Shown in pieces: positions 8,050 to 13,013 of a stretch of DNA of 64,000 nt; the stretch's first letter is position 1, and the number at the start of each line of letters is the position of its first letter. A program made the position numbers and the translations under genes. Source of the DNA: Puniceicoccaceae bacterium (GTDB lineage Bacteria; Verrucomicrobiota; Verrucomicrobiia; Opitutales; Oceanipulchritudinaceae); contig JBFOMH010000005.1 of assembly GCA_040830765.1 (NCBI GenBank), positions 1 through 64,000 of the forward strand, read 5' to 3'. The notes under the pieces are model-generated. The model ran no database searches. It was not told the origin of the DNA and saw only the letters and a list, made by a program, of their open reading frames with translations.

Positions 8050-9702
8050 ATGGCCGATCGAATCACCGGGGAACCATTTGCCACCCGCAGCGAAGTGCTC
8101 GGGAAGAACGGCATGGTTGCCACCAGCCAGCCGTTGGCGGCTCAGGCGGGCCTGGACATTCTCAAGGGTGGGGGAAACGCCGTTGATGCCGCCATCGCCG
8201 TCAATGCCTGCCTGGGATTGATGGAGCCAACGGGGTGTGGCATCGGGGGTGACCTCTTTGTTCTTCTGTGGGACGCAAAGTCCCGACAACTGCACGGTCT
8301 CAATGCCAGTGGCCGCAGCGCCGAGGGAGCCTCCCTCGATGATATGGGACGGTTGCTTAAGTCCATGGAAATCAACAAAATACCCAACCTCGGTCCGCTC
8401 TCCGTTTCCATCCCGGGCTGTGTTGACGGGTGGTCTGTCCTTCATGAGCGGTTTGGACAACTGCCTATGGATAAAGTCCTCGCCCCGGCGATTCAGTCCG
8501 CCCGGGAAGGATTTCCGGTCACGGAGGTGATCGCTCATTACTGGGCCGCCACAGTGGAGACCCGGGCCCAGTATCCGGGATTTTTAGAGGCTTTGACCCT
8601 CGATGGACGCGCTCCGGCGAAAGGGGAGATCTGGAAAAACCCGGACCTGGCCGATACCTATGCCATCATCGCCGAACTCGGCCGGGATGCCTTTTACACA
8701 GGCGACATGGCCCGAGTCATGGCGGAGTTCCTCGAGAAACATGGTTCCTTCCTCCGCTACGAGGACTTTGCCGGCCACACGTCTGAATGGGTAAAGCCTA
8801 TTTCCACGAACTACCGCGGCTATGATGTCTGGGAACTCCCGCCAAACGGACAGGGACTGGCTGCATTGCAGATTCTCAACATCCTGGAAGGATTTGATTT
8901 TTCTCAACCCTCATTCGGCTGTGTCGACCATCTTCATGCCTTTATTGAGGCCAAGAAATTGGCTTATCACGATCGGGCATTGGAATATGCCGATCCACAC
9001 TTTCACGAAGTGCCCCTGGAACGGCTTCTTTCCAAGGATTACGCTTCAAGCCAGAGAAAGCAGATCAACCCCATGAAGGCCGCTCTCAACATTCCGCCGG
9101 ATCCGGATGAATTGCGGCAAGGCGATACCGTATACCTAGCCACGGCGGACAGTGAGGGGAACATGGTCTCCTTTATCCAGAGTAATTACCGCGGTGTCGG
9201 CTCAGGGCTCTTTCCACCAGGCCTGGGATTTGGATTCCAGAGTAGGGGATCCGGATTTTCCATGGACCCGGAACACGCCAACGCCTATGCCCCCGCGAAG
9301 CGGCCCTTCCACACCATTATCCCCGCCTTTATCGCCAAGGACGACCAACCGCTCTGCGCCTTTGGCGTCATGGGTGGAGATACCCAGCCCCAGGCCCATG
9401 CCCAGATTGTCATGAACATGGTCGATTTCGGGATGAACCTCCAGGAAGCGGGTGACGCTCCCCGTATCGTCCACTCCGGTGATTCCGATCCTTCCGGCAC
9501 CCGCATGCTCGATGGCGGGCATGTCGCCCTTGAGTCCGGATTTCCTCCGGATGCGGTCAATGAGCTGAAGGCGAGGGGACACAGCCTTATCGAGGGCAAG
9601 GGCTCTTTCGGCGGCTACCAAGCCGTCTGGCGGGATCCGGAAACCGGTGTCTATGCCGGGGCTAGTGAGTCCCGCAAGGATGGGCAGGCGGTTGGGTATT
9701 AA
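8050..9702 (+). CDS. ggt: Gamma-glutamyltransferase family protein (no signal peptide)
   Basis: Motifs GGNAVDAAIA, GIGGDLF, ELPPNGQG, the Thr nucleophile in GDTVYL, KRPFHTIIP and GVMGG are present. Confidence 0.93.
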   Translation: MADRITGEPFATRSEVLGKNGMVATSQPLAAQAGLDILKGGGNAVDAAIAVNACLGLMEPTGCGIGGDLFVLLWDAKSRQLHGLNASGRSAEGASLDDMGRLLKSMEINKIPNLGPLSVSIPGCVDGWSVLHERFGQLPMDKVLAPAIQSAREGFPVTEVIAHYWAATVETRAQYPGFLEALTLDGRAPAKGEIWKNPDLADTYAIIAELGRDAFYTGDMARVMAEFLEKHGSFLRYEDFAGHTSEWVKPISTNYRGYDVWELPPNGQGLAALQILNILEGFDFSQPSFGCVDHLHAFIEAKKLAYHDRALEYADPHFHEVPLERLLSKDYASSQRKQINPMKAALNIPPDPDELRQGDTVYLATADSEGNMVSFIQSNYRGVGSGLFPPGLGFGFQSRGSGFSMDPEHANAYAPAKRPFHTIIPAFIAKDDQPLCAFGVMGGDTQPQAHAQIVMNMVDFGMNLQEAGDAPRIVHSGDSDPSGTRMLDGGHVALESGFPPDAVNELKARGHSLIEGKGSFGGYQAVWRDPETGVYAGASESRKDGQAVGY

Positions 9703-9729
9703 AGAGATAACCACAGTATCCAGGAACAT

Positions 9730-9783
9730 GCAGGATGCCTGTACTCTATTCCAACCAAGGGTCTACAAGGCGCCCTGCCTGTA
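9730..9783. repeat. Degenerate REP family A copies
   Basis: GCAGGATGCCTGTACTC nearly matches the reverse complement of GAGTACAGGCATCTTGC at 37307. GGTCTACAAGGCGCCCTGCCTGTA is a second degenerate unit. Confidence 0.55.
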
Positions 9784-9794
9784 TAATCCCCGGC

Positions 9795-11057
9795 TCAATC
9801 TACATCGACCCCCATGCGGATGAAATGGACATCCGCTCCATCGGGTTCCACTTGAATGATGCCTTCAACATCTTCGTAAAGGGGATTCTCCCCTTTGTTG
9901 GCATTCTCTTCATAGATTGGATTGCTCGTACTTAACGGTTCGAAGAGCAATGATTCCGGTGCCATCCAAGGAATCGGACCGATATTCGGATCATCCGTCC
10001 GGCGTCGGAAATTCAAGCGAATAACGGGTCCTTCGGGCGTGTTCATCCTTGTCACCCTGACAGCTTCTTGGGGCAGGGTGAACTCATTGGGATTGGTCAC
10101 GAGGGTGAACTCGACGATTGTCGGGATGTTGTCCTTGTCCGGATCTCCGATCGGCGAAGCAAAGGCCGGGTCAAGGAGTTCCTCGCGGGAAAAATTTGCC
10201 GCCATGAAGGCTTCAAACGGCGTCATCTCCACATCGATCATCACCGCAAAGGAGCGTGAAGTCCGGTTAACCCCGTCGGATACCCGGACTGTGATGCTGG
10301 CAACCCCTGAGTATAGGGCCGAAGTGCGCGCAGTCAGGGTTCGACGCAGCCCCGTGCCGGAAATCGCCAGGTCGAGAATCATCTCCGGCCGGTCCGTCTC
10401 AACCGTGATTTCAAGTTGGTCGGGCGGTGTCTCCACCTCGTTGATGACAATCAGGACGTCGATGGGGGAAGCCGTCCCAGTCGAAACGTCGGGAATCAGA
10501 TCCAGCGTCGGAGGCTCATTGCCCCCGGAAGCCTCTCCGGTATTCGTCGGGATATCCCACCAGCTCCGGGCCTGGTAGAGAACGATCCCATCTGTATCTA
10601 ATTCCCAATACGTTGACTCGATATACGTGTAATTCAGCGAGAAATCCTCCTCAGGAGGATCACCCTCCGCATTTCCGTTGGTTGAGTAGGAAGAAATCAT
10701 CACGTTATGCAGCTTATACTTCAGGTAGGTTGTCTCGCCCCGCGTCGTCAAGCGGGTCACGTCCAGCTCCAGCTCGGCAATCACTTCACCCGTGGCCAAA
10801 GCGCTCATCATGCGCGCAGAGGCATTATCCGTCTTCTTGGTCAGGTTTAATTCACTGAAATCCGGCGGGGGAGGGGGAATCCCCTTGCTGACCGAGATCC
10901 CGTTGAAATAACTCTGCACAGGGATCCAGTTCGCGTGGGCGTCATCCGTCGATTCCCCCTCGACACCCTCCCACCTCAAATAGTGGGGGGCTTCCATCGC
11001 CGTTCCGAAGACAGCCAGAAGGCAAAACAGGAAGAGCAACCTGCGTTGGTGGATCAT
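9795..11057 (-). CDS. Secreted Hcp-domain fusion protein (signal peptide + Hcp + Ig/cadherin-like + C-terminal domain)
   Basis: Signal peptide MIHQRRLLFLFCLLAVFGTAMEA. Hcp motifs GVEGES...H.NWI, FSELNLTKKTDNAS, YLKYKLHNVMISS and E.FSLNY..I. Then NEPPTL...ITVRVSDG and a C-terminal DPDKDN...EF...FIRMGV region. Confidence 0.8.
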   Translation of the reverse strand: MIHQRRLLFLFCLLAVFGTAMEAPHYLRWEGVEGESTDDAHANWIPVQSYFNGISVSKGIPPPPPDFSELNLTKKTDNASARMMSALATGEVIAELELDVTRLTTRGETTYLKYKLHNVMISSYSTNGNAEGDPPEEDFSLNYTYIESTYWELDTDGIVLYQARSWWDIPTNTGEASGGNEPPTLDLIPDVSTGTASPIDVLIVINEVETPPDQLEITVETDRPEMILDLAISGTGLRRTLTARTSALYSGVASITVRVSDGVNRTSRSFAVMIDVEMTPFEAFMAANFSREELLDPAFASPIGDPDKDNIPTIVEFTLVTNPNEFTLPQEAVRVTRMNTPEGPVIRLNFRRRTDDPNIGPIPWMAPESLLFEPLSTSNPIYEENANKGENPLYEDVEGIIQVEPDGADVHFIRMGVDVD

Positions 11058-11091
11058 GGGCCTCAATAGATTAGGACTGGATTACGTCAGC

Positions 11092-11655
11092 CTAGGGGGT
11101 GTTCTGGACCACGTCCCACGTGAAGGGCTCCACGCCGGATGGCCTCCCGTCGGGGAGAGTCGAGTAGTCTACCTTGATACGGGTGAAATTCAGGGTGACG
11201 TTTTCCGTTATCCGGTCCTCGCCGCCACTGCCACCGGTGGATATGGAGGTGATGATCACATCTGTCATCGTGATCTTCATATAGGTCTGGGTCTCGCCCC
11301 CGGTTCCCGTCCGGGTAAGGCTCAATTCAACCGTGCCGAAGACGGTTCCCGAGGCACAGGAAGTCATCAGCGCAGGTGTGGACTTATCGATGTACTTGGT
11401 CATCGATAAATCATCGAAATTGACCCCGCCGGATATCCGCTCACCACCGCCTGCGCCAGACGTGTTCACCGGATTGTACATGCCCCAGTCAATCGACAGG
11501 ACATCGATCCATTTATCATGATTCGAATCCTTCGACTCTCCGTCCACGCCGTCATATTTTGCAAAGACTGCTCCGTTAACCGTGCTCGCCAGTCCCAGGA
11601 TCATCAAGGCCGCGAGCCACCGCCTTGTCCCCCCAAAGCTCGTTATCCAGTTCAT
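11092..11655 (-). CDS. hcp: Hcp1-family tube protein with N-terminal signal peptide
   Basis: Motifs DGVDGESKDSNHDKWIDVLSIDWG, FDDLSMTKYIDKSTPAL, YMKITMTDVIITS and ENVTLNFTRIKVDY. They are preceded by RRWLAALMILGLASTVNG-A. Confidence 0.88.
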   Translation of the reverse strand: MNWITSFGGTRRWLAALMILGLASTVNGAVFAKYDGVDGESKDSNHDKWIDVLSIDWGMYNPVNTSGAGGGERISGGVNFDDLSMTKYIDKSTPALMTSCASGTVFGTVELSLTRTGTGGETQTYMKITMTDVIITSISTGGSGGEDRITENVTLNFTRIKVDYSTLPDGRPSGVEPFTWDVVQNTP

Positions 11656-11791
11656 TCCTTGAATCTAACCACCGGGGCAGGGGCCTGTCAAAGGTTTAGC
11701 ATTAGGTGAACTGTAGAGGCCTATTAGAAGGCGTATTCTCCAGAGAATCAATCTTTTAGACATAATACATATTGTACCTTCTATATGCACA

Positions 11792-11816
11792 GAATCCCGC
11801 TGAATTAGCGGGATTC
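11792..11816. terminator. Hairpin downstream of the DUF4097 gene (probable terminator)
   Basis: GAATCCCGCT-gaatt-AGCGGGATTC is an inverted repeat. The U-tract on the minus strand is weak. Confidence 0.5.
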
Positions 11817-11846
11817 CGTTTCTTGTAAAAACTGAACTGGATGAAA

Positions 11847-12791
11847 TCAGTTTGGATTCAGGTTGATACTGCCGGAACCGGTACTGATTTTGAGATTGGG
11901 GCCGCCATTGGCGGTTGCGCCATCGAGGGAGCGTTTCTTCGCGACAGGATCGACGAGGTCAAAGCCACAGTTGATGCTGCCGCTACCGACACCGGCATTG
12001 AGGACGAATCCGGCTGTCGGCGGGAGAAGAATTTTGACACCACCACTTCCGGTGGCGGCCTTGGAGTCCTCGACCAATTCGACAGACGACTCGATGCGGA
12101 CGCTTCCGGAACCGGTTTTGGCGGTAAACTGGCTGATCTGCCCGACGGCGTTCACGCTGCCGGATCCGGTGGCGGCATCGAGGCTACCCTCCATGTCGCT
12201 GACCTTGATACTGCCGGAACCCGTACGGACTTTTATGTTCCCCTCGACTGCGACGAGATTGATCTGTCCGGAGCCGGACTTGGCTTGAATCTCACCGGTC
12301 AGGTCGCTGCCGCTGACACTTCCGCTGCCGGTCGCAAAGTGAAGGACGCCGGTGATGGCATCGACCGAAACAGCACCGGAGCCATTTTTCAGGTGCAGAT
12401 CCATGTCTTGAGGAACTTTCACGGTAATATTGGCACCCGATGACTTGGAGCTTTTAAAGATGCTGAACCAAGAGCTGTTTTTGCGCTTGGTCTTCACAAC
12501 AACCGCCAAAACGCCTTCCTCCTCCTCAATGGACACTTCAGCTTCATCGAAGATTTCATCAGCTGCGGCCTGGTCCGAGGCCTTGGCGTATAATTCGACT
12601 TCGACAACTACGCTCCCGCGGTCCCAGCTGGAAACCGCTACATGGGCGGATTGTGCCTGAAGGTCGACTTTCTCAATACTTCCGGAATCAAATTCCCGGA
12701 TAATTTCCCTTGTAAATCCCTCGGCCGAGAGAAATCCCGGCGCAGCGAAGGCGACGAGAGCAAGAACAGTGATAGGTTTGATTGGTTTCAT
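11847..12791 (-). CDS. Secreted DUF4097 (putative adhesin) beta-strand repeat protein
   Basis: Signal peptide MKPIKPITVLALVAFAAPGFLSA, followed by many TGSGS(V/I) repeats. Confidence 0.85.
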   Translation of the reverse strand: MKPIKPITVLALVAFAAPGFLSAEGFTREIIREFDSGSIEKVDLQAQSAHVAVSSWDRGSVVVEVELYAKASDQAAADEIFDEAEVSIEEEEGVLAVVVKTKRKNSSWFSIFKSSKSSGANITVKVPQDMDLHLKNGSGAVSVDAITGVLHFATGSGSVSGSDLTGEIQAKSGSGQINLVAVEGNIKVRTGSGSIKVSDMEGSLDAATGSGSVNAVGQISQFTAKTGSGSVRIESSVELVEDSKAATGSGGVKILLPPTAGFVLNAGVGSGSINCGFDLVDPVAKKRSLDGATANGGPNLKISTGSGSINLNPN

Positions 12792-13013
12792 GATATTTTG
12801 CTGCATATGCGATAGAATTGCGATTAATGTGCCAATTGACACAGGTGATTCGCAAACATCTGCCTGCAGGTTACTTATAATTTTGGTCAAAGGCGAATTT
12901 TTTCGCCGAAGCCCCCTTTTTGGCGATAATTTGGCGAAATTTGCCAAATCCGGGCACAAAAAAGCCCTGTCGCGCATTTACGGACAGGGCCTGAAAATTG
13001 GTTCGAAACTCCC

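Follow-up and report, generated by a model that had tools for sequence, protein, structure and literature searches.

What does an Hcp protein do when it carries an export leader in a genome in which no type VI secretion system (T6SS) is found? The question is raised by two adjacent genes, designated here hcpS and hcpL, in a 64,000-nucleotide (nt) stretch of a Puniceicoccaceae bacterium (assembly GCA_040830765.1, contig JBFOMH010000005.1, positions 1 to 64,000 of the forward strand), referred to below as the window. In the textbook view, Hcp lacks a signal peptide, polymerises only within a contractile sheath and is released from the cell by T6SS firing alone, and the presence of Hcp in the supernatant is the standard assay of T6SS activity. 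We propose that hcpS and hcpL form a conserved, self-contained operon of Hcp-fold proteins, which are exported by the general secretory (Sec) pathway and work outside the cytoplasm without a T6SS. For this statement as a whole we estimate a probability of about 0.6; its narrower part, that the products are exported and independent of a T6SS, is held with considerably greater confidence.

The pair consists of the following elements.

11092..11655, minus strand: hcpS, 187 amino acids (aa), ATG start, stop codon at 11092-11094 included; a stand-alone Hcp domain with an N-terminal leader.

11058..11091, minus strand: spacer between hcpS and hcpL, 34 base pairs (bp) to the hcpL ATG, with GAGG 3 nt before this ATG (read from the sequence).

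9795..11057, minus strand: hcpL, 420 aa, stop codon at 9795-9797 included; leader, Hcp domain, immunoglobulin-like (Ig-like) domain and C-terminal module.

10548..10988, minus strand: Hcp domain of hcpL, approximately residues 24-170, defined by the Pfam match (E 1.6e-26) and by Foldseek against the PDB.

An alternative TTG start would extend hcpL to 9795..11066 (423 aa) and shorten the spacer to 25 bp; the ATG at 11057, giving 420 aa, is supported by all aligned orthologs, which begin near MIHQRR/MTRR. The original prediction, made from the window sequence, had described two co-oriented genes 34 bp apart with Hcp1-type domains. Both open reading frames were recovered at the coordinates listed above, and both proteins matched the full length (positions 1-129) of the Pfam T6SS_HCP profile (PF05638, cut-off 23.5 bits): HcpS at residues 31-164 with E 2e-39 and 135.3 bits, and HcpL at residues 29-153 with E 1.6e-26 and 93.5 bits. 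The more specific TssD model TIGR03344 (cut-off 58.9 bits) was passed by HcpS with 66.6 bits; HcpL fell under the cut-off with 45.9 bits. HcpS aligned with Hcp1 of Pseudomonas aeruginosa (1y12) across residues 30-186 with E 4.7e-39, shared 44-53% identity with most leaderless Hcps of ~160 aa in the aligned set, and retained the invariant residues of canonical Hcps. The Hcp domains of HcpS and HcpL were 35% identical to each other. In the AlphaFold2 (AF2) model of HcpL, the Hcp domain superposed on the Hcp1 structures 4w64, 3eaa, 1y12 and 4tv4 with target-normalised template modelling (TM) scores of 0.77-0.90 (first eleven rows of the Foldseek output), which bears out the predicted Hcp fold. 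Pfam and NCBIfam scans revealed no toxin family in either protein, and TIGR03344 was the sole NCBIfam model at E<=1. HcpS and HcpL are genuine members of the Hcp domain family by sequence and fold.

The genome from which the window comes (3.99 Mb in 40 contigs, 96.9% complete) has no Hcp matches other than the two window genes. Whole-genome searches at E<=0.01 yielded no match to VipB/TssC, Phage_GPD/VgrG, TssF, GPW_gp25, Phage_sheath_1, PAAR or VipA/TssB (ClpV, TssK, TssM and TssL were not searched); the absence of T6SS genes, previously noted for the 64 kb only, extends for these seven families to the whole genome. In a control run over 14 well-known genomes, each of the seven families gave matches in E. 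coli.

The second feature that sets the pair apart is the N-terminal leader of each protein.

11572..11655, minus strand: hcpS leader, residues 1-28; n-region with RR, h-region WLAALMILGLA, c-region STVNG, followed by AVFAKYDG.

10989..11057, minus strand: hcpL leader, residues 1-23; MIHQRR, then LLFLFCLLAVFG, then TAMEA.

The N-terminus of HcpS reads MNWITSFGGTRRWLAALMILGLASTVNG/AVFAKYDG, and that of HcpL reads MIHQRRLLFLFCLLAVFG/TAMEA/PHYLRW. In both, the initial Met and basic residues are followed by 11-12 hydrophobic residues, by small residues and then by the Hcp domain. The features expected for Sec export and cleavage by signal peptidase I are a basic n-region, an h-region of 7-15 residues and small residues at positions -3 and -1. 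By our heuristic and by inspection this tripartite pattern is present in both leaders, with putative junctions at STVNG/A in HcpS and at AVFG/T or AMEA/P in HcpL. The hydrophobicity over 10 residues was 2.66 for HcpS, with 2 basic residues, and 3.31 for HcpL. AF2 modelled a helix at residues 2-17 of HcpL, with low predicted local distance difference test (pLDDT) values after it. A lipobox (L-x-x-C) is absent at both leader ends; in HcpL, no small residues stand before the Cys of the h-region (LFLFC). Leaders were present in 18 of the 19 aligned HcpL orthologs, and the exception looks N-terminally cut. The Sec-type leaders that the original prediction described before both domains are kept as a feature among relatives.

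Leaders and T6SS were compared in two samples of relatives, 201 genomes from the order of the window genome and 401 genomes from the phylum. In the order sample, Hcp was found in 25 genomes and TssC in none. In the phylum sample, 30 genomes had Hcp and 19 had TssC; both were present in 17 genomes, Hcp only in 13 and TssC only in 2. The phylum sample also revealed some genomes of the window's order with a T6SS. A leader was scored if an upstream in-frame start gave an extension of 12-50 residues with a 10-residue mean hydropathy of at least 1.9 and at least one basic residue before the hydrophobic stretch. By this heuristic, a leader was present in 32 of the 33 evaluable Hcp frames from genomes lacking TssC and in none of the 19 from TssC-positive genomes. 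Thirteen further frames were not evaluable, as the alignment stopped short of the domain N-terminus; most of those from TssC-less genomes show leaders by eye. Frames from TssC-positive genomes have an ATG (in one case GTG) 2-3 codons ahead of the domain, their proteins begin with MA(F/V)D, and these leaderless hcp genes adjoin tssC by coordinates. In many leader-bearing frames, the interval from the leader Met to the domain offers no start codon of any kind, and therefore the leader must be translated in such frames. The leaders share features, not sequence, and they end (..NG/A, ..ADA/A, ..AQA/A) exactly where the leaderless proteins start with MAVDMF; cleavage would therefore yield a near-native Hcp N-terminus. 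The near-perfect association of leader presence with T6SS absence among the relatives is strongly supported.

The pair itself recurs. Two Hcp genes close together on one strand, a short one followed by a long one, were found in 13 of the 25 Hcp-containing genomes of the order sample; in the phylum sample, 10 of the 13 genomes that have Hcp but lack TssC contain such a pair. These are 21 distinct genomes, and the order was short-then-long in 21 of 21. When 13 loci were compared with up to 9 kb of flank per side, the pair was the only family common to more than two loci; two relatives have a 4-nt overlap between the genes. A recurrent, ordered and self-contained two-gene unit, probably an operon, is strongly supported by these comparisons. 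The earlier description of an "orphan" operon holds in that the pair is self-contained, and it understates the case in that the pair is a recurrent ordered module in 21 genomes and part of a large class of leader-bearing Hcps. A peptide-pattern search with one pattern taken from the HcpL alignment gave 3 loci, in metagenome-assembled genomes (MAGs) of Oceanipulchritudo sp., Opitutaceae and Opitutales, a number that does not suffice for a survey. Some copies look degraded. In one relative (G163, L040/L015, G163:C238) the pair looks decayed, with a truncated short gene and a stop within the long gene, and an Hcp match at another locus (L011, G145:C53:20479-20799) contains three in-frame stops.

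HcpL carries further parts beyond its Hcp domain. Its family comprises 23 proteins at E<=0.001 with lengths of 231-735 aa, mostly 417-436 aa; two of them, one from a Puniceicoccaceae MAG, are named in the source as Hcp family T6SS effectors. In the AF2 model (mean pLDDT 78.8), the leader helix is followed by the Hcp barrel, then by a beta-sandwich at residues 191-274, a helical stretch at 280-332 and a second beta-sandwich at 333-419. Beyond the Hcp domain, two regions were delimited.

10242..10511, minus strand: Ig-like beta-sandwich of hcpL, approximately residues 183-272, based on a weak Big_9 match (E 0.015) and the model.

9798..10241, minus strand: C-terminal module of hcpL, approximately residues 273-420, a helical part and then a beta-sandwich, based on invariant columns of the alignment.

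A second model, built for residues 180-420, reached a mean pLDDT of 88.7 and a predicted TM-score of 0.80. In VIA-align comparisons, the Ig-like domain resembled S-layer SbsC domains, a sialidase linker and the SraP adhesin (Z 11.3-10.5). Within the HcpL family, conservation is highest in the C-terminal ~150 residues, with the invariant motifs DPDxD...T..E...NP and NPLYE. No fold name was assigned to this module: the PDB rows belonged mainly to the Ig-like domain (model residues 1-98), and the module itself gave only generic beta-sandwich rows, such as 6nmy (Z 9.0). In the ESM Atlas, the module was found on the ends of many Verrucomicrobiota proteins (TM by query 0.71-0.80), and the clusters of these proteins also carry fn3, CBM_4_9, LTD (lamin-tail) and FAD_oxidored/Golvesin_C domains. 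Within the window genome, its helical part recurs in a leader-bearing protein with cohesin and Big_7 domains (L071:1225-2373, minus strand) and in an Endonuclease I (Endonuclease_1) protein (L072:871-2493, minus strand). The motif W/F..F...E...DP..DPD.D...N..E(Y/F)..G..P is common to both proteins and to the HcpL C-terminus, and this helical motif may tag or anchor exported proteins in a lineage-specific way. In HcpL variants elsewhere, this added part of the protein is replaced or extended by TSP3, cadherin-like, Big_9 or fn3-like modules, and a toxin domain was not found in any HcpL variant. The additional parts of HcpL thus appear to be surface-type modules without a recognised toxin. Two variants (L035:7364-9961 in G179 and L040:9165-10874 in G163) carry ~450 residues ahead of the Hcp domain; this N-terminal part has a leader of its own and matches no Pfam family, so an Hcp domain can occupy a position midway in a large exported protein.

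Leader-bearing Hcps extend far beyond these relatives. An exhaustive phmmer search of 1.84 billion cluster representatives returned 10171 proteins at E<=0.001, of which the best 150 were classified; their ranking is biased, as the query contained its own leader. Among these 150 were 69 single-domain Hcps with a Sec-like leader, 7 more with a leader and a longer N-terminal part, and 19 leaderless proteins. The class of leader-bearing Hcps appears to be large and diverse. Of the best 150, 29 had exactly six Hcp stretches per chain, in proteins of ~1000-2200 aa (P0144-P0216); with a stricter per-domain threshold the number was 24. Each of three such chains examined contained six TIGR03344 stretches. 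Several start with an N-terminal motif of the LE.LE.R..L type, and one leaderless chain (P0157) ends with RTX/serralysin-type repeats, with scores under the cut-offs. These proteins suggest single-chain Hcp "hexamers" that may use several export routes other than the T6SS. If the ring of six is what functions, six domains per chain would be expected; the support that this lends to rings of HcpS is indirect, the proteins being different ones. Full-text searches, in a collection that leaves most subscription journals outside, turned up no paper on leader-bearing or tandem-domain Hcps. A candidate precedent, PMC12904459, was rejected, as it concerns unrelated cysteine-rich "Hcp" proteins of Helicobacter.

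Taken together, the data are consistent with the following sequence of events. HcpS and HcpL would be made with cleavable Sec-type leaders, and signal peptidase would cut at the canonical Hcp start, leaving mature HcpS with an essentially native N-terminus. In the periplasm or at the cell surface, HcpS would form hexameric rings of the Hcp type, as expected because of its 44-53% identity to most leaderless Hcps compared and its preserved invariant residues. The diverged Hcp domain of HcpL may then join or dock on these rings; a complex prediction for mature HcpS (residues 29-187) and the HcpL Hcp domain (residues 22-175) was uninformative in either direction, with a score of 0.27 against a mark of 0.32 in a run without controls. 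The Ig-like domain and C-terminal module of HcpL would extend outward, tethering the assembly to the envelope or decorating it there, and their modelled architecture fits such an anchor or decoration role. The rings or tubes that the original prediction proposed for the stand-alone copy outside the cytoplasm, and the part of anchor, cap or adhesin proposed for the fusion copy, are conjectural. The products are likely to build a structural or adhesive assembly at the surface rather than to inject toxins. A surface assembly built specifically of ring plus tether is a tentative picture. Still more tentative is the wider idea that the rings are an envelope appendage or scaffold, nucleated or tethered by HcpL without a T6SS, and that this is one of several parallel ways by which bacteria of the Planctomycetota–Verrucomicrobiota–Chlamydiota (PVC) group have brought the Hcp ring out of the cell, others being the six-domain single chains with an LE.LE.R..L-type tag at the start or RTX-type repeats at the end.

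Comparison with known systems shows where the pair departs from them. Canonical T6SS Hcp/TssD (Hcp1 PA0085, 1y12) has the same family and fold as HcpS and HcpL. It is leaderless, whereas both window proteins bear leaders of the n-h-c type; its gene usually lies beside the T6SS core, whereas hcpS and hcpL have no tssBC neighbours and reside in a genome in which no T6SS families were found; and the window Hcps are an ordered pair of a short and a long protein. The window proteins should not be filed as TssD, because they have predicted signal peptides and no T6SS was found in their genome. "Evolved" Hcps (Hcp-ET) carry a C-terminal toxin extension and are delivered by the T6SS. HcpL resembles them only in that a C-terminal extension follows the Hcp domain on a single chain; however, its extension consists of an Ig-like domain and a lineage-specific module that non-toxin exported proteins also carry, no toxin family was recognised in it, a leader is present, and no T6SS was found in the genome.

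Hcp and phage tail tube proteins share their fold, and in lambda gpV (2l04), as in HcpL, an Ig-like domain facing outward comes after the tube-protein fold. Alignment of this HcpL domain with 2l04 gave Z 9.1 and a root-mean-square deviation of 3.0 over 87 residues, a Z within the generic Ig-like range. The window pair has no phage neighbours; gpV is cytoplasmic and assembles on the tail. Engineered Hcp1 fusions made to force hexamers, as given by their PDB titles (GspE-Hcp1, 4ksr/4kss; Vps4-Hcp1, 6ap1; TrwK-Hcp1, 7o42), indicate that the Hcp ring tolerates large partners fused N-terminally and can act as a six-fold scaffold. HcpL and the variants with ~450-aa N-terminal parts would, by analogy, do naturally what these chimeras do; the chimeras are artificial and cytoplasmic, and no natural exported counterpart was found in the literature searched. 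Sec-dependent surface fibres (chaperone-usher pili and curli) offer a functional analogy only, their fold being unrelated to Hcp. Their subunits cross the inner membrane by Sec and assemble outside the cytoplasm, with a minor multi-domain subunit as tip or anchor, in the way that window Hcps might polymerise; however, no usher, chaperone or CsgG-like gene is kept beside the pair.

Signals around the pair and its neighbours were also recorded.

11662..11691, minus strand: promoter-like TTGACA-18 nt-TAGATT, found by consensus scan with 10/12 matches; a pattern match only.

11792..11816, no strand assigned: perfect hairpin with an 11-bp stem, found by a terminator-like scan, between the DUF4097 gene and the hcpS promoter region.

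Because the -10 element reaches to within 7 nt of the hcpS ATG at 11655, the hcpS mRNA may possibly be leaderless or have a very short 5' untranslated region. The hairpin is the palindrome GAATCCCGCTG-AAT-CAGCGGGATTC within the 190-bp gap between the DUF4097 gene and hcpS, and may be a bidirectional terminator. Upstream and co-oriented lies the gene (11847-12977, minus strand) for a DUF4097 "toastrack" protein of 376 aa (E 1.3e-16), which has a hydrophobic N-terminal segment and repeats rich in GSGS; other genomes do not keep this gene beside the pair. The other neighbours are housekeeping genes: glucose-6-phosphate dehydrogenase, OpcA, 6-phosphogluconolactonase, tyrosyl-tRNA synthetase, a rhodanese, gamma-glutamyltranspeptidase, TrpA, an M16 peptidase, a Kdo transferase and transketolase. 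No phage genes were found near the pair. The G+C content ranges from 0.48 to 0.60 across 6-16 kb, with no sign of a recent island.

RNA libraries were available as assembled contigs, which give no transcript start, strand or level and are uninformative where they do not cover the sequence. Both genes are bridged by contigs 9554-11563 and 9789-11514 from two metatranscriptomes of one study, and by contig 9744-11635 from a run that belongs to a second study and is only presumed to be RNA. The bridging contigs fit expression as one unit, and they are a hint at it; a single transcript is unproven and DNA carry-over is possible. The loose contig ends at 11563 and 11635 were rejected as transcript starts, since they are adapter-like and differ between runs. 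The region 9500-12100 occurs nearly letter for letter in mollusc-metagenome runs and in the runs of one coded host, oligo-dT metatranscriptomes included, and the bacterium may be host-associated.

Several observations weigh against the proposed reading or parts of it. The leader call rests on our own heuristic and on relatives, and cleavage and localisation are predicted only. TssC alone served as the T6SS marker in the relatives. The single evaluable TssC-less frame without a leader (G428; L046, G428:C13) has a hydrophobic stretch with no ATG or GTG before it; the short Hcp of this genome may have an unusual start codon, a sequencing error or a decaying leader. In a tree of 54 Hcp domains built by a quick method over 157 columns (six rows dropped, five shorter than 125 residues and one duplicate), 9 of the 51 inner branches were starred, and the short, long and T6SS-type Hcps were not cleanly separated; the leader may have arisen once or several times. 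The C-terminal module gave just two weak, partial sequence matches in its own genome. The start of hcpS is also open to argument: AAGGA lies immediately before the ATG at 11655, with zero spacing, the RNA-library contigs stop at 11635, 11630, 11563 and 11514, short of this ATG, and an in-frame ATG at codon 18 was chosen by the gene calls of P0001 and P0003. A start at Met18 would leave just MILGLASTVNG ahead of the domain. The export route of the window pair may also differ, as both leaders have RR before the hydrophobic residues (TRRWLA, QRRLLF), and export by the twin-arginine (Tat) pathway, whose substrates have a motif of the S/T-R-R-x-F-L-K type, is possible. The h-regions of both leaders are strongly hydrophobic. 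RR was seen in 8 of 32 leaders of relatives; because it occurs in just this fraction overall, Sec export is the probable general reading for the leader-bearing Hcps.

The main competitor of a surface assembly is a periplasmic Hcp ring that serves as a cage or chaperone for exported proteins, with HcpL linking the ring to clients or to the envelope. Canonical cytoplasmic Hcp is a chaperone for small T6SS effectors, and HcpS retains the canonical invariant residues. A Sec leader alone delivers a protein to the periplasm only, and no dedicated outer-membrane component is kept beside the pair in the 13 loci. However, the TSP3, cadherin-like, Big_9 and fn3-like modules of the HcpL variants are typical of surface or extracellular proteins, the C-terminal module is common to Endonuclease I and cohesin proteins that are probably extracellular, and no client gene is kept nearby. 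We consider this explanation improbable.

Less probable again is a factor released by type II secretion, acting on a mollusc host or on competitors, for example as an adhesin, a lectin or a pore-like ring, and forming no part of the producing cell's own envelope. The window genome has three secretin genes, which would in principle provide a route across the outer membrane; the stretch is present in mollusc-metagenome-labelled RNA libraries and in runs of one host organism, and the Ig domain of HcpL is adhesin-like. Neither protein has a toxin or enzymatic domain, however, the pair occurs in many Verrucomicrobiota genomes whose habitats are unknown and probably varied, and contig data cannot rank expression.

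It is very unlikely that the starts were mis-called, with true starts past the hydrophobic stretches and the proteins being cytoplasmic Hcp relics of a lost T6SS. This would agree with the two automatic gene calls that took the internal ATG at hcpS codon 18 and with RNA-library contigs ending 20 nt short of the upstream ATG. However, the HcpS ortholog P0002 (78% identity), which reads MGTRRILAALIVLGLTSAVNG/AVFAKYDG and begins with MGTRR, has Ile instead of Met18 and no internal Met. Most relatives likewise have no start codon between the leader Met and the domain, and hcpL has no internal start that would yield a full domain. Leader features are kept despite sequence divergence in both genes and in several families, such upstream extensions were found in 0 of 19 frames from T6SS-bearing genomes, and the open reading frames are intact and present in RNA libraries.

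A T6SS or other contractile machine hidden in the unassembled ~3% of this 40-contig, 96.9% complete genome, from which 2372 bases are withheld, or too diverged to detect, is hardly credible, given that seven independent families are absent, that TssC is absent from 201 of 201 sampled order genomes and from all 13 phylum-sample genomes with leader-type Hcps, and that a T6SS tube is built in a compartment from which a Sec leader would take the protein away.

The reading of hcpS and hcpL as exported, T6SS-independent proteins has consequences for annotation and beyond. "Type VI secretion system tube protein" annotations mislead for leader-bearing Hcps, and the inference of a T6SS from hcp alone is unsafe. 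The Hcp ring would be a reusable extracytoplasmic module, and the pair is a two-gene system suited to asking what a tail-tube ring does without sheath, baseplate or spike. Naturally secreted, self-assembling ring scaffolds for protein engineering are a possible yield. If the wider idea of an envelope appendage is true, the tail-tube fold would have been taken into use a second time, as a building unit outside the cell.

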